Positions 5,831 to 52,635 of a DNA stretch of 64,000 nucleotides are shown piece by piece. Both the position numbers and the translations under genes were made by a program. This stretch comes from Bacteroidota bacterium (GTDB taxonomy: Bacteria > Bacteroidota > Ignavibacteria > SZUA-365). The stretch covers positions 33,201 to 97,200 of the forward strand of contig QKAF01000027.1 of assembly GCA_003246455.1 (NCBI GenBank), written 5' to 3'. Position 1 is the first letter of the stretch. The number at the start of each line of letters is the position of its first letter. Below the pieces are notes generated by a model. The model did no database searches and had not been told where the DNA came from. It saw nothing but the letters and a program-made list of their open reading frames with translations.

Positions 5831-5831
5831 A

Positions 5832-6050: not shown

Positions 6051-6077
6051 ACCGTTATACCCCAGGCGACGATACGC

Positions 6078-16951: not shown

Positions 16952-18997
16952 ATGAACGCATGGTACAGGACCGTCGGGGTTTTCTCCCTTTTAGCGATAT
17001 TTCTGATTCAAAACGCCGCCGCTCAGGGCAACATCGACTGGGAGGAAGCTTGGAAACAGATGCCTCCCTTCGGACCGACGCCGCATCCCATGGCCTGGAT
17101 GAACGATTCCCTGTCCTACACCCGGCTGGCATACGACGAAACGCGCGACGTGCTGTACGTCGTGTCACCGCATCCAGCGGGGGGCGCGGGCTGGAGCGCG
17201 CCGGCAATCCACATCCTGGATCGACAGACCGGCCAACCGAGAATGGATATGGGACGCTCGGCCCATTTCGCGCGGCAGGGGCTGGGAGGAGAACTTCCCG
17301 TGCCGCTCGACACCTTCATCACAGTGAACAATAAAAACCTCGGCTTCGGAGATAACTGGTTCGCTCTCTACAGCATCGATGTGGACGAGGAGGGACGCAT
17401 CTATGCCTGCAATCTGGTCACGCCGGTCTGGGGTATCTGCAACCTTCTGCCCCAGGGCGGCTGCGACCCGATGTATCTCGGACAGGGACCTTTTCGCGTC
17501 TGGCGCTGGGATACCCCCACATCAACACCCGAACTGATCTATGCGACCTGTAACACGTCGCACACCGCGATCGGAAATATCAACTCGAGCGAAATGGCGT
17601 ATGCACGCTGGGGCGACACATTTTCCGTGACCGGGAAACGTGCGTGGTATCACCCCCCGCACGGCGGTCCCCCCGTCCTCGTTGACAGTACGCGCATCTA
17701 CGTGTCGGGGGGAGCCTCACCCGGCTCAGCGAATGGCCGCATCGCTGTCCTTCTCCCGGATGACCGCCCGGCGCCCCTGCGTCCAACACGTGATGTCATG
17801 GGAGGCGGAAACCTGAGTTTCAGGCTTGGTTTGCAGATCAACCTGCCCGCAAACTTTTTCGCCAACGGACTGGCTCCCGATCTGCTCACGGTTTCCGGGG
17901 ACACACTCGAACGGTGGATATGGCTTCAGAAGTACGGGCAAAACGTCATGAAAGTCCGGGAGCGACAGCTTCCCGGCGCACCCCTGCCGCAGACCCTTAC
18001 GCCGGCCGGCGGGGACGTCCTCATATACCCCGGCAGCTCGAGTCTTTTCGGTGCGAGCGGCGCGATGGAATTCATGCATCTCCCTCAATGGCAGCGCAGC
18101 TTCCTTGCGGTTGCCGACGGCCGTCCGACGGGAGGTTCGATTGTGTCGATTGCGAATGACAATACGACCGCACGATTCATAGATGTTACCGACTGGCGGG
18201 CTGCCTTCATGTTCTGGGGAGAGACGCCACAGCTCGGACAGGCGAATCAATGGTCCATCGAGCCGGATAATTATATCAGCGACGTGGATATGACGCTCTT
18301 CTATGACTCGGTGCACCCCGGACCGTACCCCCGGCTGCAGATGTTCGTGCTCATGACGAATAACGGCATTGCCTCATATCGCAGCAGGCCTCAATTTCCC
18401 GTGGAACTGCTGTCGCTCCGTGCACATCGCACGGCATCCGGGGCGGAAATTGAATGGACCGTCGCGGAGGAAGTGAACATCCAGCAGTACCAGGTGGAGC
18501 GGGGCGGGACGGAAAACGGCCCATGGGCGGTGGTCGGGACAGTCGCGGCGCGAGGCGGGACGGGGAACCTCTCGTATGCCATCGATGATGAAAATGCGGA
18601 GTGGAACGCGGGTCCTGCAGGCGACAAGGAACCGAGCGGGGGCATATGGTACCGTCTGACGGCGCTGCAATACGACGGATCGAAGCGGATATTCCCTCCC
18701 GTCATGGTGGAGCACACGGCGCAGCTTCTTCCGCTGCAGTGCGCGCTCTTCCCGCAGCCGGTTTCTTCGCAGGACGGTATGGTCTACCTGCGGCTGCAAT
18801 CGCCCGCAGCGGAGGATGTGTCGCTGCGCGTCGTCGATCTGCTCGGACAGGAAGTGCAGCCTGCACGCCAGTACACCGTCGGGGCAGGACGCACGCTTCT
18901 GCCGCTGCGGATCGGTGATGTTACGTCAGGGATTTATCTGATCGTCCTGAGAACGGGGAGCGGAGCGGTGCGAACGCAGCGCATGATCGTGCGTTAA
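16952..18997 (+). CDS. T9SS-type secreted protein (681 aa), paralog B of 14605..16650, divergently transcribed.
   Basis: Shared blocks QGNIDWEE, GRIxACNLVxPVWGICxLLPxGxCDPxYLGQGPFRVWRWD, INSSEM..RWGD. C-terminal CTD-like beta-sandwich ending LIVLRTGSGAVRTQRMIVR. Confidence 0.7.
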   Translation: MNAWYRTVGVFSLLAIFLIQNAAAQGNIDWEEAWKQMPPFGPTPHPMAWMNDSLSYTRLAYDETRDVLYVVSPHPAGGAGWSAPAIHILDRQTGQPRMDMGRSAHFARQGLGGELPVPLDTFITVNNKNLGFGDNWFALYSIDVDEEGRIYACNLVTPVWGICNLLPQGGCDPMYLGQGPFRVWRWDTPTSTPELIYATCNTSHTAIGNINSSEMAYARWGDTFSVTGKRAWYHPPHGGPPVLVDSTRIYVSGGASPGSANGRIAVLLPDDRPAPLRPTRDVMGGGNLSFRLGLQINLPANFFANGLAPDLLTVSGDTLERWIWLQKYGQNVMKVRERQLPGAPLPQTLTPAGGDVLIYPGSSSLFGASGAMEFMHLPQWQRSFLAVADGRPTGGSIVSIANDNTTARFIDVTDWRAAFMFWGETPQLGQANQWSIEPDNYISDVDMTLFYDSVHPGPYPRLQMFVLMTNNGIASYRSRPQFPVELLSLRAHRTASGAEIEWTVAEEVNIQQYQVERGGTENGPWAVVGTVAARGGTGNLSYAIDDENAEWNAGPAGDKEPSGGIWYRLTALQYDGSKRIFPPVMVEHTAQLLPLQCALFPQPVSSQDGMVYLRLQSPAAEDVSLRVVDLLGQEVQPARQYTVGAGRTLLPLRIGDVTSGIYLIVLRTGSGAVRTQRMIVR

Positions 18998-29522: not shown

Positions 29523-30455
29523 ATGAATATTCTTATCACAGGGGGAGCCGGTTTTATCGGTTCGAGCATCGCGGATGCATACCGCGAGCGCGGGCACGAA
29601 ATCGTGATCGTCGACAATCTGTCGACAGGGAAGCTGGAGAATGTTCCGCGGGGGGCCGCGTTTTACCAGATGGACATCCGGGATGAAGGTTTCGCCGACA
29701 TCGTGCGCGAACACAACATCGACGTGATCAATCACCATGCCGCGCAGATCGACGTGCGACGCTCGGTGGAAGATCCGCGCTACGATCTGTCGGTCAACGT
29801 CCTCGGTTCGCTGAACGTCATCGAATCCGGTCTGCGCAATAACGTGCGCCGGATCATCTTCGCCAGTTCGGGCGGCGCGGGCTACGGAGAACAGGAGTAC
29901 TACCCGGCCGACGAAAATCACCCAATCGCACCTTGTTCTCCTTATGGCATCACCAAGGTGACCGTGGAACGCTACCTCCATTACTACCACGTGGTGAACG
30001 GCCTCAGCTATACCGTGCTCCGCTATACCAACGTATACGGTCCGCGGCAGAATCCCCATGGCGAAGCCGGCGTCGTCGCCATCTTCACCGACAAGCTGCT
30101 GCGCAGGGAACAGCCCGTCATCAACGGTGACGGACTGCAGACGCGCGACTACGTCTTCGTCGATGATGTGGTGCAGGCCAATCTCCTCGCGCTCGACATG
30201 GAGGGCAGCGACACCTTCAATGTCAGCACGAACGTCGAAACGACGGTGAATACCATTTTCCGCGTCCTCAATGAAGCGCTCGAATCGCCCGCCGACGAAA
30301 AGCACGGCGAGGCGAAAGCCGGTGAGCAGCAGCGGAGCGTCTGCTCGTACGAAAAGATCAAGGCCCGGTTCGGCTGGGAACCGCGGACCCCGATCGAAGC
30401 GGGTCTGCGGCAGACCGTCGCATGGTTTCGCGAACGTTTCGAAGAGGATGAATAA
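29523..30455 (+). CDS. NAD-dependent epimerase/dehydratase (UDP-glucose 4-epimerase-like).
   Basis: MNILITGGAGFIGS Rossmann motif and YxxxK (PYGITK). Confidence 0.8.
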   Translation: MNILITGGAGFIGSSIADAYRERGHEIVIVDNLSTGKLENVPRGAAFYQMDIRDEGFADIVREHNIDVINHHAAQIDVRRSVEDPRYDLSVNVLGSLNVIESGLRNNVRRIIFASSGGAGYGEQEYYPADENHPIAPCSPYGITKVTVERYLHYYHVVNGLSYTVLRYTNVYGPRQNPHGEAGVVAIFTDKLLRREQPVINGDGLQTRDYVFVDDVVQANLLALDMEGSDTFNVSTNVETTVNTIFRVLNEALESPADEKHGEAKAGEQQRSVCSYEKIKARFGWEPRTPIEAGLRQTVAWFRERFEEDE

Positions 30456-30555
30456 TCCCCAGTATTTCCGTGGGGTATCCGGAATCCAACATGATCCGCG
30501 GTGCCCCTTCCCCCCGCCTTCTGAGCGAAAAAATCGTATGTGAATCATTCGCACG

Positions 30556-30578
30556 TCGCGTGAATTTATTTCACGCGA
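30556..30578. promoter_or_regulatory. Inverted repeat TCGCGTGAA-tttat-TTCACGCGA inside an AT-rich island upstream of the motor-like cluster. Candidate operator.
   Basis: 9-5-9 perfect inverted repeat. The surrounding 30540-30700 is ~60% AT in a ~62% GC genome. Confidence 0.4.
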
Positions 30579-30601
30579 ATAGTGCGATAATCGGACACTT
30601 T

Positions 30602-30625
30602 GGCGTTTTTTTAAGTAAAAACGCC
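30602..30625 (+). terminator. Hairpin GGCGTTTTT-ttaagt-AAAAACGCC followed by a T-rich tract. Probable terminator of the epimerase gene.
   Basis: Perfect 9-bp stem, followed by GATTTTCATTT. Confidence 0.45.
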
Positions 30626-30699
30626 GATTTTCATTTGGCATGATTTGTGAACGATAATTAGCGATTGATTTAGCTCCTCACCATCTAGCCAACACGCAT

Positions 30700-31467
30700 T
30701 TGCTGAGTACATCAGAAACAGTCAAGGATCTCGAGGTATTCGAAGGCCGACGCCTGCTGCGCGACTTCTATCATGAGCGCAGAGTAAAGAATGCCATCGA
30801 GGCCAAGACGCTGCTCGAATGCTGGAAACTGTGCCGCCGGGGTACCGAGGTTCATTTCAGCGACGGACGGCGCGTTCGGCTGGAGACCAATCTCGGCGTA
30901 CGGCTGGGCACCCGCATTTTTCTCGAGGAGATCGTCAGCAGGAACCATTACAATTCCATCCAGGGGCTGGTGTACGCCGGCGCGATGATCGTCCTCCTGG
31001 CGGTTGCGATGTATCTCGCAGGGTATACGCTGTGGATCGCAATGGGGGCGTTTCTGCTCGAGGCGCTTTTCCTGCTGCTCCTGGCGATGGTGACGGCCTA
31101 CAGTCCCGTTGACGACACCGCCGCGAGCGGCGTCTCCCTGGGCCTGTCGGAGAATCTGCTGACCTCGATCAACAGTTCGATCCACGAAATGACCAACGCG
31201 GTATCAGATCTTTTTCGGCTGATCTCGCAGACGGATATCCGGCAGGATGTGCTGCTGACACGGCTCACCGAGAACATCAGCAAGCTCAACGCCGAAAACA
31301 CGCGCAAGTATTCCGAGAAGCTGGAGCAGACCAACGCGCTGCTGCGGGAGCTCAATGAGAATTCCCGCGCGCAGCTGCAGAGCATTCTCCAGCAGCAGCA
31401 GCAGTCGATGCAGCAGACGCGCCGCCTCATCGCCCTCATGGACCATAACGACGAGGAACCGGCATGA
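30700..31467 (+). CDS. GldL/PorL-like (ExbB/TolQ-superfamily-like) inner-membrane motor subunit, copy 1 (L1).
   Basis: Two adjacent TM helices (LVYAGAMIVLLAVAMYLAGY / WIAMGAFLLEALFLLLLAMVTAY) with a Glu in the second TM, matching the GldL VYGxGAA / G..EAL pattern. Long coiled-coil Q-rich cytoplasmic tail. The table start is a TTG. The true start is uncertain. Confidence 0.5.
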   Translation: MLSTSETVKDLEVFEGRRLLRDFYHERRVKNAIEAKTLLECWKLCRRGTEVHFSDGRRVRLETNLGVRLGTRIFLEEIVSRNHYNSIQGLVYAGAMIVLLAVAMYLAGYTLWIAMGAFLLEALFLLLLAMVTAYSPVDDTAASGVSLGLSENLLTSINSSIHEMTNAVSDLFRLISQTDIRQDVLLTRLTENISKLNAENTRKYSEKLEQTNALLRELNENSRAQLQSILQQQQQSMQQTRRLIALMDHNDEEPA

Positions 31468-31538
31468 CGGCCGCCGGCGCAGCCCCGGGTAACGCCGCCA
31501 TCAACAGTCCGCGCGGCCGCGCCGCGGAGGTTTGACGT

Positions 31539-33044
31539 GTGGCACAGCGGAAACGGATCGACATCTTCTTCATTCTCTACCTCACCGCGATACTCGGTTT
31601 CGTGGTTGTTTCGAGGGAACGCGATAAAATCGATGAAGGAATGCATGAACTGAACGAACAGATCGTCCGGACGTTTGTCCCCCCTGTTCCGCTGAGACCG
31701 GAGGGCGACACGCTGCGTTGCTATGTCGACGCCGATTCGAACGGCATCGTCATCGGCGACCCGCGGGTGTTCGAGACGAAAGTGTTCGCTGGCGACATCA
31801 CCCCGGACGATGCGGTTTCCCTCTCCCTGCACAGTGTCATTCACGACGGGACGCTGACCACGCCCGATATCGTCTCGATCGGACCGCGCACGGCCGCGGG
31901 CGAAATAGCCGACCAGGAAGTGTTTTTCCCCGTCACCGGACTGTTCCCGCGTACCGGCGTCTATCATGTCAACATCGCGGCGAAGGCCCGACGGGTGCAT
32001 GAAAGCAGCCCGGGCGTGTTCGTCTACCGCGGAAAGCAGTTTGACACGTCGCTCGTCAGCCGGGAGATGATCGCTTCGGTGGAACAGTCGCGGCTGACGA
32101 TGACCGTGGTCGTCGAAGACACCTCGCTCGATCATATGACCTCCCTCCAGAGCCTGCAGATCGAGGCGGCGCGTGCGGAGATCACCTCCGCGATCGGATT
32201 CGAAGAGCGCAACACAGTCACGATCAATCTCGGCTGGGCCGCGCCGACGATGACCATCGTGCGCGGGGGAGGGCAGCTTCGCGAACTCACCCGCACTGAT
32301 CGCATGGTGGAATATGTCTGGAGCGGCGCGGTCACGAGCATGCCGTATACCGTCGAGATCGAGGCGCGCGCGAACCGCGGCGCCGGCGGTCGGGACATTG
32401 CCCGCACGCGTTTTTCCGTGTCCGGAATTCAGCCGTTTCTGCGTATGGCTCCTCCCGACATGGTGTTCGCCGGGGAGGATATCAATTTCGATATCAGCGT
32501 CGAGGGACTCGATAATCCGGCCCAGTACAGCTGGCGGCTGTTCGAGGAAGTCGGGCAGGGAGAACCCCTGCTGAAAATGGAGGGGCGCGGTTCACGGGTC
32601 GCCTACCGTATCCCGAACTCCTACGCCGACAAGCATCTCGTGGTCGAGGCCCGGTATAACGGCCGTCCCTATCGTTTCATCTCCCGCGCGTCGTATGCCT
32701 CGGGCAGCTCCCGCTTTGCCCTGCCGGTTGTCGAACCGCCCACGCGCATCGGGCTGGACCTGCCCGCGCGCGCAGCCGCGACGGCATCGTTCCGTTTCAC
32801 CGCATCGAAATACAATGACATCCGTTTCCGCGGCGAGCAGCCGATCGACCGCCTCGCCGACGTGCAGGTGGAACTCACCAATGAGGAAGGGAACGTGCTC
32901 GCCTCGGACGTATGGATGATGCGGAAAGGAGAATTCGAGTTTTCGCTCGAAAATCGTACGTCCATCCGCAAAGGCGGAGAGAGAATTATCGTCCGGATTC
33001 ACGCCGGTGGAAACACCGCGCAGCGCAGCATTCAGCTGTATTAA
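31539..33044 (+). CDS. GldM/PorM-sized bitopic periplasm-spanning protein with an ExbD/TolR-like acidic TM residue, copy 1 (M1).
   Basis: 501 aa. N-terminus MAQRKRIDIFFILYLTAILGFVVV is a single TM resembling the ExbD/TolR IDV-hydrophobic motif. Followed by a ~450-aa periplasmic beta-rich region. Confidence 0.5.
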   Translation: MAQRKRIDIFFILYLTAILGFVVVSRERDKIDEGMHELNEQIVRTFVPPVPLRPEGDTLRCYVDADSNGIVIGDPRVFETKVFAGDITPDDAVSLSLHSVIHDGTLTTPDIVSIGPRTAAGEIADQEVFFPVTGLFPRTGVYHVNIAAKARRVHESSPGVFVYRGKQFDTSLVSREMIASVEQSRLTMTVVVEDTSLDHMTSLQSLQIEAARAEITSAIGFEERNTVTINLGWAAPTMTIVRGGGQLRELTRTDRMVEYVWSGAVTSMPYTVEIEARANRGAGGRDIARTRFSVSGIQPFLRMAPPDMVFAGEDINFDISVEGLDNPAQYSWRLFEEVGQGEPLLKMEGRGSRVAYRIPNSYADKHLVVEARYNGRPYRFISRASYASGSSRFALPVVEPPTRIGLDLPARAAATASFRFTASKYNDIRFRGEQPIDRLADVQVELTNEEGNVLASDVWMMRKGEFEFSLENRTSIRKGGERIIVRIHAGGNTAQRSIQLY

Positions 33045-33287
33045 CAGTACTGAGAAATAGAAAACATGTCTGACGGATTTGACTTGAATATGAAGATTGT
33101 GCGAGATTGTTGTGATAGTGAATGCGCGACAGCAACCCGCACGTCCTTTCGCCCTCGGACAAGAGCATTTCCCAATACGGCAGTTCATGCAACAACGCTT
33201 CAAATCGACACAGTACATATACAAATTAACAGTGTCCCGCTCCCGGCGGTGACAGCTCATCCTATGTCTTGTTAGGAGGTTTTCCTT

Positions 33288-34121
33288 ATGAAGAGTAGTG
33301 GATTCATTCGCCACCTGTTGCTCGGTACTCTGCTGATCGCAATCGTCACTGTTTTCGCGGCTCCGGTCGTGCACGCGCAGGGCGATGAAATGATGACGCT
33401 TGAGCAAATGAAAATGAAGCTGCGTGACGAAGGCAAGGGTCGCGACCTGAGCCAGCTCACGCATCAAGAGCTCGAGATGATCAAGAAAAGCGACAACGGA
33501 CTGTTCGGCAACCTGTTCAACACCGAATTCGTGATGAAGATCGGAAACTCCACCTTCATCCTGAACATGCTCGCAATCACACTCGTCATCGTCATCGCCG
33601 GGTTTGTCGTTCTCTTCTTCTTTACCCCCATCGGTCTGTTCCTCTTCAGGGGCAGTCTGCATGCCTTCGTCGGTGCGCTGCTGAAGGCATCCGGTGTCTC
33701 GAAGAAATTCGGCGATCACCTGATGAAGGAGCCGAAGAAGTGGCTGCAGAAAGAGAAGAGCGTCCGTCAGGCGTTCGCACTCTACATGCACAACGAATTC
33801 ATCCCCGAGTACAAGAACAACATCACCGCCATTGCCTTCATGGGTACGGCATTCCTTATTCTCAACATCGGTCTCCGCGGCGTGAAGTTCATGACCGCCC
33901 ACCAGCCTGACCTGATCGTTATCGCAATCGTCGTCGAAATCACCGTGCTCCTTCTGCTCGGTATGACGACCTGGTACGAGAAGGAAGAAGAAGAAGAAGC
34001 AGGCGCAGGTGCAGGCATGCCCGGGAAGCAGCTTTCGCTCGCCGACGTCGAACGTCGTCTCGATGCCCTCAAGGCAGAACTCGAGACTTCCGTTCGGACC
34101 GAATCCGGTCTCCGTCAGTAA
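33288..34121 (+). CDS. GldL/ExbB-like motor subunit paralog, copy 2 (L2), with an extra N-terminal signal/TM region.
   Basis: Last two TMs (AIAFMGTAFLILNIGL / LIVIAIVVEITVLLLLGMTTWY) are paralogous to the L1 TMs and include the TM Glu. There is an additional upstream TM, giving an ExbB/TolQ-like 3-TM topology. C-terminal coiled coil. Strong RBS ttaggagg. Confidence 0.5.
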   Translation: MKSSGFIRHLLLGTLLIAIVTVFAAPVVHAQGDEMMTLEQMKMKLRDEGKGRDLSQLTHQELEMIKKSDNGLFGNLFNTEFVMKIGNSTFILNMLAITLVIVIAGFVVLFFFTPIGLFLFRGSLHAFVGALLKASGVSKKFGDHLMKEPKKWLQKEKSVRQAFALYMHNEFIPEYKNNITAIAFMGTAFLILNIGLRGVKFMTAHQPDLIVIAIVVEITVLLLLGMTTWYEKEEEEEAGAGAGMPGKQLSLADVERRLDALKAELETSVRTESGLRQ

Positions 34122-34168
34122 GCAGTTCGCGGACTATGCCAATCAGTAAGAAGAAGGAGTAAGCAACA

Positions 34169-35776
34169 ATGGCTCATACTGCCGACCACTATAAAAAATA
34201 CCAGGTTTACTTCTTCCTGTATCTGGCTGTGATCTGCGAGCTTCTCATCATCATCGTGGAACGCGATGATGCGGAAGCCGACCTGCTTATGCAGCAGCGG
34301 ATGCTGGAAGAAAAGAATCGTAAGATCATTCTCGAGCTCCTCAAGAACATGCCCGCGGTGGCCGCGGCCGGTGACAACCAGCTGAAGGTCAACGAAGAGC
34401 GCAAGTTCACGATCAACGTGAAGGGTCTTGGCGAGAACGATGAAGTGACGACGCCCCCGGAAGTCAAGGTGTTCAAGGACGGTACCGAGATGGGTACCCT
34501 CAAGTACCCGCAGGACATCCAGGATTCCATCGTGCACGGCACGACCGGCGAACGTCTCTATCGCTTCACATGGAAGGCCGAAAGCGGTCCCGGCACCTAC
34601 GAACTGTGGGTGCAGGCCGGAACCAACCGCGTGTCCCTGACTCCGGATCTCGAGCAGGGCGAGGCGAAAATCAAGGTCGGAACGCTCGAATTCTCCCGCA
34701 AGGAGATCCGCTCCGCTCTCGATTCCGACCCGGATCTTCGCGGAACGCCGGTGGAGCACTTCATCGAGAAATCGGAAAATCTGATGCCCGATAAATTCGT
34801 TGTCGAAGTGGTTTCCGAGGAATACGATCAGCTGCAGATTCAGGCAGATCCGATCGTGACCGCCGTCGGCTTCCCGACCTTCAACGAAATCAAGGTTCGC
34901 GGTACCACCGTGGACAAGATCTCCAACATGAATATCGTCGGCGGCGGCGTCGCCCTGCGTCCTGACAACCAGCGCAACCCGTATTACAGCCCGGATCCCG
35001 AGCGCGGCAAGTGGGTGTGGTCCAACACCTACAATGACGCCGGCACGAAGTCCGTCAGTGTCGATGCGCGTGACAACCGCTCCGCGGGCGTCAAGAGCGT
35101 TTCCCGTCCCATCAGCTTCGATGTCATCGTGAAGGAGCCGTACCTGAGCCGCCGCAAACCGAGCGGTGCGTTTTCCGGCGAAATCTTCGAAATGAACATC
35201 AACGTCGCCGGTCTCGAAGACGTCGGTTCCTACGACTGGACCATCGAGATCGACAACGCGCAGGTGGAGAAGGGCAAAGGCAACGTGGTCAAGTACAAGG
35301 TGCCGGAAGATGCGCTGGGCAAGACCTTGACCATCAAGTCAACCTACAGGAACCGGGTGTACCAGGTACTGGTCGATTCTTCAGCGACGAACCTGACCTC
35401 TTCCGAATTCCTGTTCAACATCACCGCCCCTATCGACCGAATTGGATCGCAGTCCTTCGCGAATGGCGGCGAATACCCGATCAATAACGTCTTCCAGTTT
35501 GTCGCAGCCCGCTGCGGCCGGTGTATCGGATCCAATATCCGTAACATCCAGCCTTCCGACATCCGTGTGGAAGTGGAATCTGAAGACGGTCAGGATCTGC
35601 TTGCCGATACTCCCGAGGTTTTCCAGCGGACGAACCCGAATACCGGGGCAGACCAGGGCAGCCTTGTGAAATTCTATCTGAAGGGCAAAGTCGGCCGCGA
35701 CGGAACCGAGGCGACGATCACAATCCGTTACGGTGCCGTCAATGAGCGTTACACGGTCATGCTCTATCAGGAGTAA
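34169..35776 (+). CDS. GldM/PorM-sized bitopic periplasm-spanning protein, copy 2 (M2).
   Basis: 535 aa. N-terminus HYKKYQVYFFLYLAVICELLIIIVERDD is a single TM containing Glu. Large periplasmic region with Ig-like beta repeats. Confidence 0.5.
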   Translation: MAHTADHYKKYQVYFFLYLAVICELLIIIVERDDAEADLLMQQRMLEEKNRKIILELLKNMPAVAAAGDNQLKVNEERKFTINVKGLGENDEVTTPPEVKVFKDGTEMGTLKYPQDIQDSIVHGTTGERLYRFTWKAESGPGTYELWVQAGTNRVSLTPDLEQGEAKIKVGTLEFSRKEIRSALDSDPDLRGTPVEHFIEKSENLMPDKFVVEVVSEEYDQLQIQADPIVTAVGFPTFNEIKVRGTTVDKISNMNIVGGGVALRPDNQRNPYYSPDPERGKWVWSNTYNDAGTKSVSVDARDNRSAGVKSVSRPISFDVIVKEPYLSRRKPSGAFSGEIFEMNINVAGLEDVGSYDWTIEIDNAQVEKGKGNVVKYKVPEDALGKTLTIKSTYRNRVYQVLVDSSATNLTSSEFLFNITAPIDRIGSQSFANGGEYPINNVFQFVAARCGRCIGSNIRNIQPSDIRVEVESEDGQDLLADTPEVFQRTNPNTGADQGSLVKFYLKGKVGRDGTEATITIRYGAVNERYTVMLYQE

Positions 35777-35839
35777 TCGGTCGTTCGCCTATCATTCATA
35801 CGCGAAGTGGAATATTCAATTCGATTAGAGGATAAGTTC

Positions 35840-37885
35840 ATGAGCAAACAATTTCTTTTACGTGCCTTTCTCTTCGTGGCACTCGTTGTAGGCCTCATGC
35901 CGCAGCTTTTTGCTCAGACCGACCGTGAGGTAAAGAGCAAACAGACGGATCTGAAGCACGAATACAACGACGCCTCTGAGAAAAACCAGATCATCAAGTC
36001 GGCGGCAGAGGACAAGCCGCGTGCGACGACCGGCCGCCGGCGCAGTTCGGCCACGACCGGTTACGATTACACGCAGGTGAAGGGATTTGCCCTTCGCCAG
36101 TTCAACGATCGCATCGACAAGGTGTTCGCCCGCGCCAACGATCTCGGCCTGTTCGAGGAAGAGTACCGTCTCGACGGTACCTTCCCGGTCCCCGGCCGCC
36201 AGGGCAAGGGCAGCGCGCAGATGCGCAAAATCGAGGTGTACTACGTCGAAGCAACGCCCGAGGAACAGGAACAGTTCGATATCGAGCCGTTCCAGATCAT
36301 CGAGGTGTATGTGGAAAAGCTGGAAACCCTGCCGCCTGAGGAAACCGCGGGCGAAACGGAAGAAGGCGGTCTCGGCCTCGGCTTCGACGCAAGCGCGTCC
36401 GAGCCGATCGCAAAGGGATATTCCCTTGCCGGAACCGATCTGACCAGCGTCCTGCAGCTTGCCGACGAAGCACTGTATGACGATATCCTTGCGAAGCGCA
36501 GCCAATCCAATCCGATTCCGCTTCCGGAACGCGGCGACTGGATGCCCGGCAAGGTCGGTCCTTTCATCGTCATGACCCAGCGCGAACTGGAAACCACCAC
36601 GAGTCGTTTCCGTGACTTCTGGAACATGCGCGATACGCTTGAAAGCGCGATCATCCCGCCGCAGTTCGAAGCGGCCGGTCCTTTCTATACCGGCAGCATT
36701 CCGATGTTCTACCCGGAAGCGAGCAAGGTGCGTGTCCGCAACCCGGAACGCAATCAGCCGCTGAAGATCACCAGCGCCGTCTTCGTTGGCGACAATGCCG
36801 ACAAGTGGGAAATCCGCACCAAGCTTCCGAAGGTTCTCGCCGGCAAGGGCGAAGCCAATGACAAGGAAGACATCGAATTCGCCTATATCGGCGGATCGGA
36901 ATACGAAACCCGCGGACAGCTGCTCATCGACGCAAAGGAAGCCAACCTCCAGCAGATCGTCGAGATCGTGTCCAACCCCGGACGGTATCCGGCCGACGTC
37001 GTGACGCTCGATGCGTCGCTCGACCGCGTCGAACTCCGCTCGCCCGCACGTTCCGGCTTCGCCCCGAACTGGAAGCTGGCCTATGTCATCGGCAACGATG
37101 AAGTCGGTCTGCCTCGCTGGTCCACGGGCATTTCCTCCCTCAGCGTGGGATACAAGAATCAGATGAGCGTCGGCGTCGTGCTTCCGATGAACATGACGGC
37201 TCCCGACCTTCCGACGCCGCTGGCGTTCGAGAAGAACCTGATGTCGTCGCCGAGCGGTTACAACGTCGCCTTCGATTTCACGTTCGGCTTCCCCTTCTCC
37301 CTCGGCGGAAACCTGACGGTCATCAACGATTATTCCGCGCAGGATGCGTACGATCACCTGAAGGTCATGCATATGAACTTCGATCCGCAGGTTGACCTGA
37401 AAGACTATGACAACGATTTCTTCCATATCTCCACGATCGCGCAGGTGTACTACCCGATCATGTTCAAGGATAATGCGGTCAATCCCAGTCTCGCATTCCG
37501 TCTGAACCTTGGTGGTGCCTTCATGCAGATCAAGCGAGATCACCTGGTCACCGATGCAGATCCGCTCGGCATGGGCAAGGAAGGCCGCATCTTCAAGACC
37601 GAAGAGATCGGCAAAATGGTCACGCTCGGCAAGGAAAAAGATCTCGTAGACGTGTACATTCGCATGTCCTTTATCAATCTGCGTTCCGCCAACAAGTACG
37701 GCATGGGCATTCAGTATTTCGCCGGCCGCATGATGGCGGATGCCTTCCTTGAACTCACCGAATGGCTGCGCGTGGACGCGAAGTACTCCTTCCTGCTCCG
37801 CGACCAGGAGATCTGGGAGACCGAAAGCAGTTACTTCCTCATCACTCCGCGCCTGCGTATCGGGCTGCCCTCCATTTTTAACTGA
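35840..37885 (+). CDS. Putative outer-membrane beta-barrel protein (OMP-A, ~680 aa).
   Basis: Signal peptide MSKQFLLRAFLFVALVVGLMPQLFAQ. C-terminal alternating hydrophobic beta-strands ending ...RLRIGLPSIFN. C-terminal block paralogous to the next gene. Confidence 0.45.
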   Translation: MSKQFLLRAFLFVALVVGLMPQLFAQTDREVKSKQTDLKHEYNDASEKNQIIKSAAEDKPRATTGRRRSSATTGYDYTQVKGFALRQFNDRIDKVFARANDLGLFEEEYRLDGTFPVPGRQGKGSAQMRKIEVYYVEATPEEQEQFDIEPFQIIEVYVEKLETLPPEETAGETEEGGLGLGFDASASEPIAKGYSLAGTDLTSVLQLADEALYDDILAKRSQSNPIPLPERGDWMPGKVGPFIVMTQRELETTTSRFRDFWNMRDTLESAIIPPQFEAAGPFYTGSIPMFYPEASKVRVRNPERNQPLKITSAVFVGDNADKWEIRTKLPKVLAGKGEANDKEDIEFAYIGGSEYETRGQLLIDAKEANLQQIVEIVSNPGRYPADVVTLDASLDRVELRSPARSGFAPNWKLAYVIGNDEVGLPRWSTGISSLSVGYKNQMSVGVVLPMNMTAPDLPTPLAFEKNLMSSPSGYNVAFDFTFGFPFSLGGNLTVINDYSAQDAYDHLKVMHMNFDPQVDLKDYDNDFFHISTIAQVYYPIMFKDNAVNPSLAFRLNLGGAFMQIKRDHLVTDADPLGMGKEGRIFKTEEIGKMVTLGKEKDLVDVYIRMSFINLRSANKYGMGIQYFAGRMMADAFLELTEWLRVDAKYSFLLRDQEIWETESSYFLITPRLRIGLPSIFN

Positions 37886-37899
37886 AAGGAGGCAGCACC

Positions 37900-39612
37900 A
37901 TGAAGAACCACACAGTATCAAGCACGGAACAACACGGCATGCAGATGAAAAACCGACTTCTTTCGATTCTCGCAGCACTTCTCGTTCTCGCCTGGCTCGC
38001 TCCCAATGCGGCACAGGCCCAGAGCTCGGATGATGCCCTGACGAGCGTCGAGCAGATCATGCGATACATGAAGAGCGCGAATTACTCGGAAGACGATATG
38101 CTCCAGCGCATGGCCTGGGGCGACCAGATCGTCAACGAACTCGTTTCCTTCAAGGCGTCTGAAGACGATCGTCAGAACTATCTCCGTCTTCTCGATATCG
38201 CCATCGATCATTACAAGGACGAGAACGACCGCCTCCGCATTCTTCTGCGTGCGCTCACCACCCTCGATCCCCTGGTGGCGAAGTACTTCCCGCAGTGGGT
38301 GATCCAGGACGAACCGATGATTCTCGAAGTCATGCGCAAGGTCCGTGATAACCGCGACGATCTGCTCGATGCGGACGCCGTCGGTATCGCCGAGCGCGTG
38401 CTCACCGGCAAGGCCCGGATGCGCGTCATCCAGAGCCCGAAAGACGATCAGAACCTGATCGCCATCTACATCGAAAAGGCGCGTCCCCATGACGACGAAA
38501 AGCTTTCTGCCGGCTTCCTGCCGAACAAGGACAACGGCGATTTCGACGACTATCGTATCGTCGGCCGCCGCAACCTTCGTGAGATCCTCACTCCGGACCT
38601 CTACGACGCAGTGGTCGCCAAGCAGTCGTATGCGCATCTCGACGAAACGGGCGCGGTCAAACCGCAGCCGTACGTTGCCGAAGCGACGATCAGCGTTCCT
38701 TTCGGCGGTGGTTTCATGTGGACCCTGGATTCGGACGAGCGCATCGGCGACGGCGTCACGCTGCAGCCTTCGCGCATCCGCGCCGGGTTCGAACTGAAAA
38801 TCGGCAACGACTGGGTGAACCTGCCGTTCCTGTACGGCGCGCAGTGGAATACGCTGTTCGTCTACGAGCCGTCCGCTACCGAGCGGGTCAAGATCGGTCC
38901 GTCCATTCCCTTCACCTGGGGTGACAAGAGCATCTCGGAGAATTTCCCGATCTTCAAACCGCGTACCCTCAACGGGACGTGGGGCGCGGCCGGTGAATAC
39001 TACAAGCAGCTCTCCAACGTCGCGGGCGCACCGGGCGTGGACGCAGACGGAATCGGCGCCGCCGCCTTCGTCTCCTTCGGCCTGAAGACCCTCGGCAACA
39101 AGAAGATCACCAACCTCGACGGTACCATCATCAACGGCGACGGTGCGGAAGCCGCGCTGCAGCTGCCGCTGACCCCGGCGGATGCCCAGAAAGCGCATTT
39201 CTACTACCTCGCGAATTCCGCGAACCTGTTCTACTGGCGTGACCTCGGCTTCATGCTCAGCGGTCTCCGCCTGCATGCCGGTCTCGGATATCAGAAGACC
39301 GTCGAAGCCGTTCGCCAGAATCCGTTCGACCAGCCCAACCAGTCCGCATGGAATCCTGACAGCGTCAGCATCGTCAGCGACAACAGCGTCCTGGATGCGT
39401 TCGTGCGCCTTTCCTACGATCACGGCGGCAAGACCACGTACGGCGTGGCGCTGCAGTATTTCAACGGCGGCGTGATGGGCGAGGTGTACCTCAACATCTT
39501 CAGCTGGATGCGCGCGGAAGTCAAGTACTCGCGCATGCTGTTCCGCGATCCGGAAGTCTGGGAACACGAAGAAATGATCGTGCCCGGCCTTCGCTTTGGC
39601 TTCGCATTCTAA
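37900..39612 (+). CDS. Putative outer-membrane beta-barrel protein (OMP-B, 570 aa), paralog of OMP-A.
   Basis: RBS aaggagg. Signal peptide ...LAWLAPNAAQAQ. C-terminus ...WMRAEVKYSRMLFRDPEVWEHEEMIVPGLRFGFAF ends in Phe (beta-signal). Aligns with the OMP-A C-terminus WLRVDAKYSFLLRDQEIWETESSYFLITPRLRIGL. Confidence 0.45.
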   Translation: MKNHTVSSTEQHGMQMKNRLLSILAALLVLAWLAPNAAQAQSSDDALTSVEQIMRYMKSANYSEDDMLQRMAWGDQIVNELVSFKASEDDRQNYLRLLDIAIDHYKDENDRLRILLRALTTLDPLVAKYFPQWVIQDEPMILEVMRKVRDNRDDLLDADAVGIAERVLTGKARMRVIQSPKDDQNLIAIYIEKARPHDDEKLSAGFLPNKDNGDFDDYRIVGRRNLREILTPDLYDAVVAKQSYAHLDETGAVKPQPYVAEATISVPFGGGFMWTLDSDERIGDGVTLQPSRIRAGFELKIGNDWVNLPFLYGAQWNTLFVYEPSATERVKIGPSIPFTWGDKSISENFPIFKPRTLNGTWGAAGEYYKQLSNVAGAPGVDADGIGAAAFVSFGLKTLGNKKITNLDGTIINGDGAEAALQLPLTPADAQKAHFYYLANSANLFYWRDLGFMLSGLRLHAGLGYQKTVEAVRQNPFDQPNQSAWNPDSVSIVSDNSVLDAFVRLSYDHGGKTTYGVALQYFNGGVMGEVYLNIFSWMRAEVKYSRMLFRDPEVWEHEEMIVPGLRFGFAF

Positions 39613-39739
39613 CGCGAACGCCTTTTCGAACGATTGACATACGTGCAGGCGGTGGACACATCCCATCGCCTGCACATGTTTTTAACCGTGATTTTTTCGA
39701 CAAGGTGGAACCAGCCCGCGATTCAATCCGTTCCGTTCA

Positions 39740-41119
39740 TTGAAACCGCGTGCCGAATCAAGCGTTATGCCCGTTAATACGTTCGTTCCATTATACATTG
39801 TCATCGCCGTTCTTCTCGCCCTGCCGGGAGGGCAGGACCTGTACTCCGCGCCCCAGGCGACAGGGATCCAGCCGGGCGACAGCCTGCGCAAACCGACCAT
39901 CATCTCCGCTCGCAGCAAACACCCCGAAGCCGTTACCGTCTCCATCCGCGCCGTCGACATCAGCCGCTACCCCGAGGTCAGCGTCATTCTCGATGCGCGC
40001 GACTCACTCGGAAATCACTTCCCGAGCCTGAGGAAGAGCGACATGGTGATCTACCAGGACAGCGCGCCGGTGGAAGTGGAATCGCTCGAGAAGATTTCCG
40101 CGAACAACAGTTTCCCCGTCGATATTGCGTTCATCATCGATCAGACGGGAAGCATGTCGCAGGAGGTCTACGAAGTCAAGGCCAACATCATTGATTTCAC
40201 GCAGCGCCTTGCATCCCGCGGAGTGGACTATCGTCTCGCGCTGCTGACATTCAGCGACCGGATCGAACGCTACAAGGATTTCACCGAGGACGTGAAAACC
40301 TTCATCGGATGGATCGACGGGCTGAAGATCGGCGGGGGGATGGACGACAACGAGAATGCGCTGGAAGGGATGTTCGAAGCCACGTCATTCAAATTCCGTC
40401 AGAGTGCGCAGAGGATCTTCATCCTCATCACCGACGCGATGTTCCATCAGAAAGGGGACAAGGGGTACGGGAAAACCGATTTTACCGCGAAGACGATGAC
40501 GGACTTCCTTCTCAAACAGAACATCAAGCTCTTCGCAATCACTCCGCCGCAGATCTCTGAATACAAGTACATGACCGAGGCGACCCGAGGAAAGCGCTTC
40601 AACATCATCGAAGATTTCAGTTCCATCCTCGACGAATTCAGCGAGTCGCTGACGAATCTCTACGCCATCCGGTATCACATCACCGAGGAAGTCCCTCCGG
40701 AAAAAATGAACCTGGAGATTCGCAACTCCCAGGACGAGGTCGTGCTGCAGGAAGAGGTCACCGTGCTCGACGTCGACAAGAAATTCGTGCTGGAGAACAT
40801 CCTGTTCGATTTCAATCGCGCCACCTTCGATATGTCCTATACCGACGAATTGAAGAACATTCTCGCGATGCTGCGCAAGTACGAGAACATTCACATCGAG
40901 ATCCGCGGACACACCGATTTCATCGGAAGCGACGAGTACAATATCGCGCTCTCCGACGCACGCGCCCGCGCAGTGAAGAAATACCTTGTGGACCGCGGTA
41001 TCGGCGAGATGCGGATAACGACGCGCGGCATGGGGAAATCGCAGCCCATCGCGCCAAACGACACCGAACTCGGCCGCCGTCTCAATCGTCGTACGGAAGT
41101 CATCATCACGCGGAAGTGA
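39740..41119 (+). CDS. vWA-domain protein with C-terminal OmpA-like peptidoglycan-binding domain.
   Basis: MIDAS motif DIAFIIDQTGSM...T...D (vWA). C-terminal NILFDFNRATF...HIEIRGHTDFIGSDEYNIALSDARARAV...TRGMGKSQPIAPNDTELGRRLNRRTEV (OmpA_C). Confidence 0.8.
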   Translation: MKPRAESSVMPVNTFVPLYIVIAVLLALPGGQDLYSAPQATGIQPGDSLRKPTIISARSKHPEAVTVSIRAVDISRYPEVSVILDARDSLGNHFPSLRKSDMVIYQDSAPVEVESLEKISANNSFPVDIAFIIDQTGSMSQEVYEVKANIIDFTQRLASRGVDYRLALLTFSDRIERYKDFTEDVKTFIGWIDGLKIGGGMDDNENALEGMFEATSFKFRQSAQRIFILITDAMFHQKGDKGYGKTDFTAKTMTDFLLKQNIKLFAITPPQISEYKYMTEATRGKRFNIIEDFSSILDEFSESLTNLYAIRYHITEEVPPEKMNLEIRNSQDEVVLQEEVTVLDVDKKFVLENILFDFNRATFDMSYTDELKNILAMLRKYENIHIEIRGHTDFIGSDEYNIALSDARARAVKKYLVDRGIGEMRITTRGMGKSQPIAPNDTELGRRLNRRTEVIITRK

Positions 41120-41155
41120 TTGTTACCCGGCAGCAATTGCGCTGGGGCGCAGCTC

Positions 41156-41569
41156 CTATTCACCCATGATTTTAATGATAAGCCGCTTGGGCCGCCGACC
41201 GTCGAACTCGGCGTAGTAAATCTGCTGCCACGGACCGAAGTCGAGGGCGCCCGCCGTGACCGGGACGATCACTTCATGATGCACGAGCAGGCTTTTGAGG
41301 TGCGCGTCCCCGTTTGTCTCGCCCGTCCGATGATGGCGGTAATCGCGACGGAACGGAGCGAGGTATTCGAGCCAGTCGTCGATGTCCTGCAGGAGCCCGT
41401 TCTCGGCATCGTTGACCCAGACGCCGGCGGTAATATGCATTGCGGAAACCAGGATCATTCCCTCGCGGATGCCGCTTTTTCGCAGCGCGTCTTCGACCTC
41501 CGAGGTGATATTGACATACTCCCGCTTCTGCGGGGTGTTGAATGTCAGGTATTCAGTGTGGAATTTCAT
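41156..41569 (-). CDS. YjbQ/UPF0047-family protein (secondary thiamine-phosphate synthase-like).
   Basis: [25 protein letters not shown]...[17 protein letters not shown]...[16 protein letters not shown]. It is only the C-terminal part of the 898-aa table ORF; the remainder of that ORF is an antisense shadow of recD2. Confidence 0.7.
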
Positions 41570-41605
41570 GAACATTCTCCTCAGGCGTGAACGATAGTCA
41601 GAACC

Positions 41606-43816
41606 ATGGGCAAAAAGATCCCGGATCATGATAGGCGCGGCGGTGATGAAACGCAAGGCGAGCAGTCGCTCGAGGCAGTGCTCGAACGGGTCATCTGGTC
41701 GGCGCCCGACAGCGCATTCGTCGTCTGCAGCATAAAGGTCGAGGGTGAACTGTTCCCGCTGACCGCCGTGGGAGAAATGGTATCGCCGTCGCCCGGTGAC
41801 CGCTACGTACTGCACGGCCGCTGGGACGAGCACCCGCGCTACGGGAGGCAGTTCCAGTTTTCCTCCTACGATGTTCAGTACCCGGTGACTCCCGAAGGGA
41901 TCGAGCGCTATCTCGGATCGGGACTGATCCGCGGCCTCGGGAAAGGTACGGCCCGGCGGATCGTCGATCGCTTCGGTACAAGGACGCTCGACGTGATGAA
42001 CAATGAAATCGAGCGCCTGCTCGAGGTCGAAGGTATCGGGGAAAAAAAACTCGATGCCATCCAGCATGAATGGGAGAAGCAGCGGGGGGTGCAGACCGTC
42101 ATGCTCTTTCTCAAGGCGCATAACATCAGCAGTGCATGGGCGGTGCGGATATATCGCGCCTACGGGAACGAGGCGATCACCGTCATGCATGACAATCCGT
42201 ATCGCCTGATCGACGATATCGAAGGAATCGGATTCATGACCGCGGATTCCATCGCACGGTCGCTGGGCATTGCCGCGGGCGATGCGCGCCGTGTCCTGGC
42301 CGGCATGAGCTACGCGCTCAAGGAAGCGGCGCGTCGCTACGGGCATACCTGCGTCCCGGAAAGCGAGTTTCTTCGTCATGCCGCCACGGTCCTTGAAGTG
42401 GAGCTTGACGAGGCATACGCCGCGCTCCGTCTTGCCATCGAGTCGGGGAGGGCGTTCCTGTATGACGATCACGTGTACCTGCCCGAACTGATGCACGCGG
42501 AGGAGGCGATCGCCGATTCGCTCCGCACCGCGTTCCGGGAAGAGTGGGACGATCTCGATCATCTCGGACTGGACAGACGACTCGCGGATGTCGAGGCCGC
42601 ACGGGGAATCCGTCTCAACGCGCAGCAGGTGGAAGCGGTGCACAAATGCCTCTCCGGACCGGTCTGCATTCTCACGGGCGGTCCGGGTACGGGAAAAACC
42701 ACGACGCTCACCGGCGTCCTCGATCTTGCCCGTCAGCTCGAATGGAGTATCGCGATCTGTGCGCCAACGGGACGCGCGGCCAAGCGTATCACCGAGGTCA
42801 CGGGTCACGACGCGAAGACGATACACCGTCTGCTGGAGTTCGATCCGTCCGTGATGGCCTTTCAGCGGAACGAGGACAACGTCCTCGAGGCCGATATCCT
42901 CGTTGTAGACGAGATGTCCATGGTAGACGTTTCGCTGATGGCCGCGCTTCTCCGTGCCCGCCGTCCGGGCTGCCGTCTCGTACTGGTGGGCGACGCGGAC
43001 CAGCTTCCGTCGGTCGGTCCGGGGACGGTCCTGCGAGATCTGATCAGCTGCGGCGAATTCGACACCGTCGTGCTGCGGCTCGTGTTTCGGCAGGCCGCGC
43101 ACTCGAGCATCGTCAGCAATGCGCACCGCATGCGTCAGGGATACATGCCCGTGTTCGACACGCGAATCGTCGACGGCGGAGAAACGTTCTTTCGCGAAGT
43201 CGGTCCCGAAGAAAACCTCGGTGCGCTCGTGCGCGATCTCGTCGCCACCCGCCTGCCGCAGGAACTGGGCTGCGACCCGATGCGCGACATCCAGGTGCTT
43301 TCCCCGATGTACGACACTCCCGCGGGAGTGACCCACTTGAACCACGTTCTGCAGCAGGCGGTGAACGGCAGCGCCCGCGTGGTGTTTCAGCGCGGGGACC
43401 GCAGTTTCCGTGCCGGAGACAAGGTGATGCAGACGCGGAACGATTACGGGAAGGATGTCTACAACGGCGACATCGGGTATGTGCAGCGGTACGACGAAGA
43501 AGAGAATCTTCTGTTCATCGATTTCGACGGCAGGGCGGCAGGATACGCGCCGGAGGAAACGGATGAACTCGTGCTCGCCTATGCCATCACGGTCCACAAG
43601 AGCCAGGGAAACGAATACGAGATCGTGATCGTCCCTGTCGTCATGCAGCATCGGGTCATGCTGCGGCGCAATCTCATGTACACGGCGATGACACGTGCCA
43701 AACGGATGATGGTGTTTCTCGGGCAGCGGAGCGCGCTCGCGATGGCGGTGGAAAACTCGCGCGAGCAGCGCCGCTTCGGTCTGCTGCCCCAGCGGCTGCA
43801 GGAGGCGCTGCGTTGA
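41606..43816 (+). CDS. recD2: RecD2-type ATP-dependent DNA helicase (SF1, RecD-like).
   Basis: Walker [21 protein letters not shown]-terminal OB/HhH region, C-terminal SH3-like. 736 aa. Confidence 0.85.
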
Positions 43817-50862: not shown

Positions 50863-52635
50863 GTGGCCTCCGCGGTTCCCCGCATATATCGATTTCTGGT
50901 AATATCGTCCCTTCTCGGGGCGATATTCCTTTTTCATGGCTGTCTCAGTCTCATCGACGGTATTATCATTCCCGCCCAGGTCAGTCTCGATCAGGAATTC
51001 CTGGTCGCGGTGGACGGCTCCGTGATCGGACACGGGGGCGGAATGGCAGGGCTTGTGGTCCAGGTGCCGGAGAGTTTCGAATTCCTGGGAGCGACGTACG
51101 TCACCTCGTCCGCCAGAAGGGTGCTTCGCCGAAACGGAAACGTGGCCGCGCGCTATCGCGCCGAGAAGGGACACGTGGTGATCGCGGTGGGAGACAGCAT
51201 TCCCTCGAGCAGGGAAACCGACGCGGACGTCCGTGTGCTGCTGCGCTTCGTGCCGAAACAGGCAGGACCTTTTACCGTCAAGTTTGCCAGCGGCGTCGTC
51301 GTCATGCAGAACGGCCGTCTTGCGTGGCGGAGCACGGATCCGGCGGATCTCCGGGATTTCGGCGAGTTGACGGACGAGCGCCTCGTGCGCACGCTGCAGG
51401 TGGTGTACGCGGAGCGGAACGGGACGGCGGCCATCGAACTGGCCGGAAACCGCCAGCATCTGCTGTGTCCCGACAGCGGGCTTTTCCGTCTGCCGCTCGA
51501 CCGCGATTTCACCATCGAGACCTGGTGTGCGACCGTTTCGACAGATGCGCCGCTGATCAGTTCGCGTCCTGACGATTTCAACACGGCCTTCCCGTTCGAA
51601 CTGCGCATATCATCATGGGGAGAAGCGCAGGTGCGCTGTGCCGACGGGCACCACTCGTGGTCGAGTGAGCGGGGGCCTTTCATCGCCGACGGAATGTGGC
51701 ATCATCTTGCGGTCTCATGGTGCAGCGACAGTCTCCGCTACGTGCTCTACGTCGACGGCCACGCGGCAGATACGCTCGCGGTCCCTGAACTGATGCGGGG
51801 AGTTTCCGCAGACCAGCTCGTCATCGGGACAAATCTTCCCCGCACCCAGTTCGTCCGTGCGTCGTTCGACGAACTTCGTCTGTGGGAAACCTGTCGCAAC
51901 GAGCAGGAAATAGCGTATTACCGCGACCTCGCCCTGAGCGGATACGAAACCAACCTCTACGTGCTCTTTTCGTTCGATAACGGGACAGACGGGCACATCG
52001 CCGGGCAGTCGCAGCTCGACAGCCTGTGGCTCTTCGCGTACAACAAACCGCGCCTGGTCGTTTCCACCACGCCGCTGCGCATCGAGCTTCTTGCATTCAA
52101 TGCGGTTCTCGACGAAGACAGCGTCCGGATGAGCTGGGAGACCTACGACGAATCGAAGGTTCGCGGATACGAGGTCGAGAAGCGGCTCGAATCGGGAAAG
52201 TACACCGTGATACATCACATCGAGCCGCTGCGGACGGCGGAACGGCATCAGGAGTACGCCGTCACCGACAACTGGCGGGGGCGCGAAATCGCTTACTACC
52301 GGCTGCGGAAGCTCAATACTGACGGGACCGTTCTGTTTTCCGAGGAGGTCCCGATCGGCACGGAGACCATCCTGAATTTCGTGCTGGAGGACAACGTGCC
52401 GAATCCGTTCACCGAGAGCACGGAAATCCGCTACACGCTGTCGAAGCGCACGCGTGTCGACCTCACCGTGTACGACATCATGGGCAGTGAAATCCGGGTG
52501 CTGGTTTCGGAACGGCAGGAGGCCGGCAGTTACACCGTCGCCTTTGACGGGAGCGATCTTCCGGGCGGGATGTATTTTTACAAAATGCGTACAAGTACTG
52601 GTTCCCAAACAAAAAAGATGTATCTTGCCAAGTGA
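50863..52635 (+). CDS. LamG/concanavalin-A-like-lectin-domain protein with T9SS C-terminal sorting domain.
   Basis: Probable GTG start (VASAVPRIYRFLVISSLLGAIFLFHGC). The LamG-like block contains WHHLAVSW. CTD LEDNVPNPFTESTEIRYTL...GMYFYKMRT. The table ORF start inside nuoI is rejected. Confidence 0.55.
   Translation: MASAVPRIYRFLVISSLLGAIFLFHGCLSLIDGIIIPAQVSLDQEFLVAVDGSVIGHGGGMAGLVVQVPESFEFLGATYVTSSARRVLRRNGNVAARYRAEKGHVVIAVGDSIPSSRETDADVRVLLRFVPKQAGPFTVKFASGVVVMQNGRLAWRSTDPADLRDFGELTDERLVRTLQVVYAERNGTAAIELAGNRQHLLCPDSGLFRLPLDRDFTIETWCATVSTDAPLISSRPDDFNTAFPFELRISSWGEAQVRCADGHHSWSSERGPFIADGMWHHLAVSWCSDSLRYVLYVDGHAADTLAVPELMRGVSADQLVIGTNLPRTQFVRASFDELRLWETCRNEQEIAYYRDLALSGYETNLYVLFSFDNGTDGHIAGQSQLDSLWLFAYNKPRLVVSTTPLRIELLAFNAVLDEDSVRMSWETYDESKVRGYEVEKRLESGKYTVIHHIEPLRTAERHQEYAVTDNWRGREIAYYRLRKLNTDGTVLFSEEVPIGTETILNFVLEDNVPNPFTESTEIRYTLSKRTRVDLTVYDIMGSEIRVLVSERQEAGSYTVAFDGSDLPGGMYFYKMRTSTGSQTKKMYLAK

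Follow-up and report, generated by a model that had tools for sequence, protein, structure and literature searches.

A conserved seven-gene operon from an Ignavibacteria genome combines two GldLM-like candidate motors with a pair of putative outer-membrane barrels and a VWA-OmpA protein

What kind of machine might be encoded by seven co-oriented genes for envelope proteins in a Bacteroidota genome in which the canonical GldKLMN proteins are not found? The genes in question, designated L1, M1, L2, M2, B1, B2 and VO, occupy positions 30700-41119 of a stretch of 64,000 nucleotides from a Bacteroidota bacterium of the class Ignavibacteria (assembly GCA_003246455.1, contig QKAF01000027.1, forward strand), referred to here as the window, whose coordinates are those of host contig C47 minus 33200. 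The known proton-driven 5:2 rotary motors form a small set (MotAB, ExbBD, TolQR, AglRQS and GldLM), and an operon that couples two paralogous, highly divergent GldLM-type units to barrels in the outer membrane and to a VWA protein would bring a new design of envelope-spanning machine into this set. We tentatively favour the explanation that this operon combines two such motors with the barrel pair B1/B2 and the VO protein and generates force at the cell surface, in gliding or adhesion, and we hold it with somewhat less than even confidence. Taken as a whole, the operon points to a machine, not described before, for pushing or holding things at the surface of the cell.

An earlier note on this DNA, made from the sequence alone, had described seven co-oriented and tightly spaced genes, and this description stands: all seven open reading frames (ORFs) lie on the + strand, with gaps of 14-243 bp. 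We place the start of L1 (30700-31467, 255 aa) at a TTG codon at 30700 because the N-termini of its orthologs align there (alignment A3), so that the beginning of the cluster formerly set at 30540 was about 160 bp too early. L1 is followed by M1 (31539-33044, 501 aa), L2 (33288-34121, 277 aa), M2 (34169-35776, 535 aa), B1 (35807-37885, 692 aa), B2 (37900-39612, 570 aa) and VO (39740-41119, 459 aa); M1 and M2 are paralogs (about 25% identity), and so are B1 and B2, at about 22% across alignment A6. An L2 profile scanned against genome contigs recovered 34 loci, about 20 of which, in metagenome-assembled genomes (MAGs) of Bacteroidota, Ignavibacteria and Chlorobiota, keep the order L1-M1-L2-M2-B1-B2-VO at 40-94% identity, and nine further loci hold an L2-like and M2-like pair alone. 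In the homolog searches, homologs were limited to MAGs of the Bacteroidetes, Ignavibacteria and Chlorobiota. With the exception of a sub-threshold hit of the GldL model TIGR03513 on L1, none of L1, M1, L2, M2, B1 and B2 has a Pfam or NCBIfam match at E<=0.1, and the same libraries reveal no type IX secretion system (T9SS) C-terminal domain (CTD) in any of the seven proteins, as the note had also claimed.

The two L proteins share a membrane hairpin and differ in what surrounds it. By hydropathy and alignment, L1 begins with a conserved, Arg-rich cytoplasmic N-domain (residues 1-85, with an invariant W42), followed by a transmembrane (TM) hairpin at 88-137 with an invariant Y92 in its first helix (TMH1) and E121 in its second (TMH2; 19/21 sequences), the Glu lying within an "EAL" motif comparable to that at GldL E49, and then by a C-terminal coiled coil. 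The two-helix topology with a membrane Glu that had been ascribed to both proteins therefore holds for L1 but not for L2. The first hydrophobic segment of L2 is best regarded as a cleaved Sec signal peptide and not as a TM helix, because its cleavage site, "HA|Q", fits the Q-rule for signal-peptide cleavage in Bacteroidetes (PMC5837995). After the signal peptide come a periplasmic segment and TM1, in which P114 is invariant; a short cytoplasmic stretch rich in Lys then leads to the C-terminal TM hairpin. In this hairpin R197 and K200 of the periplasmic loop are invariant, H205 is present in 21/22 sequences, and the last TM carries the invariant E217. L2 is thus predicted to have three TMs in the N-out topology of ExbB/TolQ, and its last two TMs alone form a GldL-like hairpin. 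Profile-profile comparison of the L1 and L2 hairpins gives 64.8% with the Glu residues matched; by this measure the two hairpins are homologous.

M1 and M2 are, as had been stated, bitopic proteins of roughly 500 aa, N-in and GldM-sized, with a large periplasmic region. In the TM of this family K/R10 is found in 31/31 sequences and Y18, eight residues further on, in 30/31; M2-type proteins have E24 in the middle of the TM, and the TM of M1-type proteins has an R/K cluster, an acidic D at its cytoplasmic end and a conserved Tyr. The note had set an acidic, ExbD-like TM residue against the Arg of canonical GldM. The acidic residue (D/E24) is indeed present, but the GldM-like K/R10 and Y18 are retained alongside it. 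In the M2 model obtained with AlphaFold from alignment A2 (mean pLDDT 88), the TM helix extends into the periplasm (residues 5-59) and is followed by about four immunoglobulin (Ig)-like β-sandwich domains, an order of TM and helix, then Ig-like domains, that is broadly that of GldM. GldM and PorM consist of a helical D1 and three Ig-like domains and form a dimeric shaft (PMC10202324).

The proposed likeness to GldLM and PorLM draws on several features. The L hairpin has a Tyr in TMH1 and a Glu in TMH2 ("EAL") together with a cytoplasmic helical domain, M is bitopic and N-in with K/R10 and Y18 spaced eight residues apart like R9 and Y17 of GldM, M carries a long periplasmic Ig-like stalk, and the gene for L directly precedes that for M. 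The residues concerned are of functional consequence in the GldLM motor, for which Y13, E49, K27 and H30 of GldL and R9 and Y17 of GldM have been shown to matter (10.1101/2020.05.11.089193). With respect to the loop residues K27 and H30, L2 has K200 and H205, whereas L1 is without a loop K/H. In a direct comparison with a reference profile of 12 GldLs from other Bacteroidota families (A4), the L1 hairpin aligns to TMH1-TMH2 of GldL with its Glu opposite E49 (hhalign 28.7%, E 6e-4), and the corresponding value for L2 is 0.6%. The TIGR03513 hit on L1 alone (E=0.092) lies in the cytoplasmic domain and is far under the 68.3-bit cut-off. The GldL-like character claimed for both L proteins accordingly finds a remote match for L1, with L2 tied to it through the kinship of the two hairpins. 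On the strength of a weak profile match, the common topology and the key-residue patterns, we regard a kinship of L1 and GldL as plausible but unproven.

There are also differences from GldLM and PorLM. The operon holds two paralogous L-M units, L1 is extended by its conserved N-domain in the cytoplasm, a signal peptide and an extra TM set L2 apart, and the M stalks are without detectable GldM homology or fold match. Unlike in gldKLMN, the places of GldK and GldN in the operon are taken by two β-barrels and a VWA-OmpA protein.

B1 consists of a signal peptide, N-terminal helical and β domains, and a C-terminal outer-membrane β-barrel, with long amphipathic strands at 537-688 (model pLDDT 67). 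Foldseek matches its model at E ~1e-4 to AlgE, the porins OmpF/OmpU, OmpG, the PapC usher and Wzi, and its neighbours in the Atlas are barrels, including PorP/SprF (TM 0.49) and TonB-dependent receptors, with TM scores up to 0.49-0.50. According to this model B1 folds as an outer-membrane β-barrel; B2, its paralog, shares the C-terminal barrel region and has a Sec signal peptide, which bears out the two paralogous barrels proposed by the note. Sub-regions of B1 and B2 gave nothing against Pfam and NCBIfam even at E<=10. The anchor proposed for the seventh gene is likewise borne out, as VO has a signal peptide, an intact VWA domain (E 3.8e-11) with a MIDAS-like motif, and a C-terminal OmpA domain (E 2.8e-21) in which the canonical peptidoglycan-binding motif is present. 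We note that the cleavage sites of L2, B1, B2 and VO would all leave an N-terminal Gln in keeping with the Q-rule, which supports their export by Sec and signal peptidase I (SPI). A possible relation of B2 to a barrel-like protein from another context (P0245) was also considered and was rejected when BLASTP found nothing.

L and M genes also occur as pairs outside the operon. The host genome itself (G000) has on contig C59 (locus L054) an L2-like gene (P0147, 531-1484) and an M-like gene (P0148, 1471-2958), then the gene for a PKD-repeat protein with a CTD (5551-7743), and the L2'-M' pairs of two MAG loci (L024, L029) adjoin CTD proteins as well; there is in these pairs a hint that standalone L2'-M' motors serve particular surface proteins. 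Since L2'-M' pairs exist without the other genes, L2:M2 is supported as a genetic unit. Distant relatives of L1 are clear homologs (P0158 against L1, 29% identity, E 3e-21) and lie directly upstream of M1-type proteins with an R-rich / E-I-Y-F-V-L-Y-L TM motif; such loci come from ENA metagenome contigs (L068, L069), JGI (L070) and Logan (L071-L073). The neighbours of the L1-M1 pairs in L068 and L069 are a Wzx-type flippase, an LptF/LptG permease, a TolC-like OEP, an RDD protein and MacA/MacB. In L070 the pair lies near PorV with a barrel-like protein downstream, and in L071 it stands after a weak CTD protein. Because the L-M pair is found in several unrelated contexts, we consider it a recurring portable module; the operon unites two such modules with a pair of outer-membrane barrels and the VWA/OmpA protein.

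How might these parts work together? We propose that the motor would comprise two stator units of the GldLM kind (5:2), paralogous to one another and driven by protons, with L1 pairing with M1 and L2 with M2. In both units a ring of L subunits, its hairpins bearing the conserved Tyr and Glu, would encircle a dimer of M TM helices. The long tandem Ig-like stalks of M could reach across the periplasm and might link proton flow to movement of a B1/B2 module in the outer membrane, which VO may anchor to peptidoglycan, or for which it may serve as an element of adhesion or contact, or both. The output would then be force at the cell surface, in gliding or in a focal-adhesion-like form of adhesion, produced from GldLM-type parts.

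The overall plan of such a machine has a counterpart in the Agl-Glt system of Myxococcus xanthus, in which a proton motor is coupled across the periplasm to the interdependent outer-membrane barrels GltA and GltB (PMC11761067) and in which the gliding adhesin CglB carries a VWA domain, there an adhesion domain (PMC9946355). The likeness of an inner-membrane proton motor, a barrel pair and a VWA protein is one of overall plan only. The Agl motor (AglR with AglQ/S) resembles TolQR/MotAB and not GldL, Glt comprises many additional parts (GltC, D, E, F, G, J, K and H), and CglB is a surface lipoprotein whereas VO is periplasmic and OmpA-anchored. With ExbBD, TolQR and MotAB the operon would share the logic of a 5:2-type proton channel, an A-subunit with three TMs and an N-out topology as in L2, and an acidic TM residue in the B-subunit (D in M1, E in M2), and with MotB a link to peptidoglycan, here through the OmpA domain of VO. 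In contrast to these systems, the L and M proteins have no Pfam match to PF01618 (L1/L2) or PF02472 (M1/M2), and the periplasmic region of M is a long Ig-like stalk and not the fold of ExbD, TolR or MotB. The other 5:2-type genes of the host genome are an ordinary set of Ton/Tol genes, ExbB/ExbD (two PF01618 genes and the ExbD genes), that lies separately on contig C128.

Several results weigh against the motor reading. Statistically strong homology of L and M to GldL and GldM is absent at the sequence level. The canonical GldL profile (A4) does not find L1 at E<=1; an L1 alignment searched against 1.84 billion representative proteins gave 93 matches, made up of L1 family members together with remoter L1-like proteins, and among 20 weaker matches that were checked there was no canonical GldL (TIGR03513). 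Comparison of M with GldM, for which the reference (A5) consisted of partial GldMs, yields 2% in hhalign, and the M2 model retrieved from Foldseek, VIA (top-1000 and wide) and the Atlas generic Ig-like, PKD and CopC-like domains alone, with GldM outside the top 50. Homology was not detected here, and the putative kinship of M with GldM is a matter of topology, TM residue pattern and stalk architecture. No PDB sequence was matched in profile searches based on the alignments of L2 and M, nor was any structural match to the known 5:2 motors found. Of the two structural expectations that the note had attached to its proposal, the barrel prediction was thus obtained with B1 and the motor match was not found with M2; likewise, its envelope-spanning gene set without canonical gldKLMN is co-conserved, but homology of M to GldM in sequence or fold did not emerge. 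The export-like surroundings of the L1-M1 pair in L068 fit export equally well as motility. Finally, a function in surface motility or adhesion, which we consider the most likely one, is suggested by analogy, and this too counts against it.

The strongest of the alternatives, though in our view an unlikely one, is that the operon is a divergent, lineage-specific substitute for the T9SS core, in which the L-M units would power secretion of CTD cargo through SprA and PorV, and B1, B2 and VO would take the role of the PorK/N ring at the outer membrane. What invites this proposal is the host genome (4.1 Mb, 98% complete), which has SprA, PorV and at least 150 proteins with the T9SS tail (TIGR04183), whereas profile searches of the whole genome gave no match to GldL, GldM_N, GldM_4th or GldN, and for GldK only FGE-domain matches under the cut-off. 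The absence of gldK and gldN that the note had reported for the cluster therefore applies to the genome as well, and with no clear full-length match to GldL, GldM, GldN or GldK the cluster is no ordinary T9SS core. The SprA of this genome is split over contigs C12 (end) and C103 (start), most likely by an assembly break and not as a split gene. We note also that the gene for PorV is situated some 16 kb upstream of the window's first position (C47:17101-17820), and that within the window TIGR04183 matches occur at ~14617-14844, 18749-18994, 52399-52620, 56386-56595 and 57833-58072.

The same combination marks the class as a whole. SprA is present in all 41 class relatives examined, each with about 100 CTD proteins or more, and none of the 41 has a match to GldL (TIGR03513) or GldM_N (PF12081); GldL is present in 16 of 61 genomes sampled elsewhere in the phylum. 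Every genome of the order (f1-f4) contains the L and M families, as do some other members of the class, and distant L-M relatives lie near PorV or CTD genes, as described above for L070, L071, L024, L029 and C59. The resemblance of the B1 model to PorP/SprF in the Atlas points in the same direction. Against this stand four complete genomes of the class (G031, G033, G037 and G039) which run SprA and more than 100 CTD proteins without any L/M-family protein at E<=1. Because of these four genomes the cluster is not obligatory for the T9SS of the class, which can run without the L/M family and with motor parts unmatched by the profiles used; the GldL profile A4 has no match at E<=1 in any of them, or in the host genome. 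The "lineage-specific T9SS core" that the note had entertained is weakened to the same extent. Moreover, the T9SS has one GldLM and not two paralogous motors, and B1 and B2 are β-barrels, in contrast to the lipoprotein PorK and the periplasmic PorN.

A mixed version, to which we likewise assign a low probability, would be that within the order the canonical GldKLMN has been replaced by the two GldLM-type motors, the barrel pair and the VWA/peptidoglycan-binding protein, which would drive T9SS-linked secretion, gliding of surface adhesins or both; if true, this would represent a second, structurally distinct "motor-ring" design within the Bacteroidota. An operon with two GldLM-type motors would also bear on the question of what drives SprA/PorV secretion, and gliding, in Bacteroidota lineages that have no canonical GldKLMN: the class retains SprA and large CTD repertoires with no GldL or GldM detectable by hidden Markov models, and the L/M family addresses part of this puzzle.

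Slightly less likely is the proposal that the operon serves the proton-energised export or assembly of a surface polymer, polysaccharide or protein, with B1 and B2 as exit channels and the L-M units supplying energy. Among the top structural matches of B1 are AlgE, an alginate exporter, and Wzi, a capsule protein, but matches to many unrelated porins show merely that B1 is a barrel. Likewise, a GDP-mannose dehydratase-like epimerase and a Wzx-type flippase are encoded just upstream in a conserved arrangement, but a terminator-like hairpin lies between these polysaccharide genes and the operon, the flippase gene runs on the other strand, and the order-level synteny covers unrelated genes too, for instance RecD2. 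The L1-M1 pair in L068, situated between the flippase/LptFG permease and the TolC-like OEP with MacAB, is in favour of export; the operon itself encodes no export substrate or enzyme. A TonB-like transducer that drives import through B1 and B2 as gated outer-membrane channels, with no role in motility, is improbable, for although Ton systems use proton-driven inner-membrane motors for outer-membrane transport and TonB-dependent receptors are among the Atlas neighbours of B1, the M proteins have Ig-like stalks instead of a TonB-like C-terminal domain, a plug domain or TonB box is not evident in B1 and B2, and the genome already has its ordinary ExbB/ExbD.

The "AT-rich island" that the note had placed upstream of the cluster is a modest dip in GC content of about 450 bp (30400-30850, 0.48 against a background of 0.58), and the region at 30400-30699 (+ strand) is an ordinary intergenic one, with a terminator-like hairpin at 30600-30627 for the transcript of the upstream epimerase and, presumably, the promoter of the operon. 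The flanking polysaccharide genes were considered as parts of the operon and rejected, the flippase being on the opposite strand and the epimerase isolated by this hairpin. A second, strong terminator-like hairpin with a 13-bp stem (39643-39675, + strand) lies between B2 and VO and may split the operon or act as an attenuator. Synteny continues beyond the cluster, with the epimerase and flippase upstream and a 156-aa ORF and a RecD2 helicase downstream, and is of order level, which is no functional evidence. The 156-aa ORF (41120-41590, + strand) has no Pfam domain and starts directly after the VO stop; 11 MAG loci keep it downstream of VO, and behind it comes the RecD2 helicase (41606-43816), which is likewise conserved. 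The ORF may represent an eighth gene of the operon or merely part of the neighbourhood synteny. Elsewhere in the host genome, on the minus strand of contig C91 (locus L055, 6550-7695), we noted a gene for a protein of 381 aa with four TMs (P0149), the C-terminal TM hairpin of which has a GLRG...E motif and weakly matches the L1/L2 hairpin profiles; its neighbours are not T9SS-like, and most genomes of the order have homologs of it.

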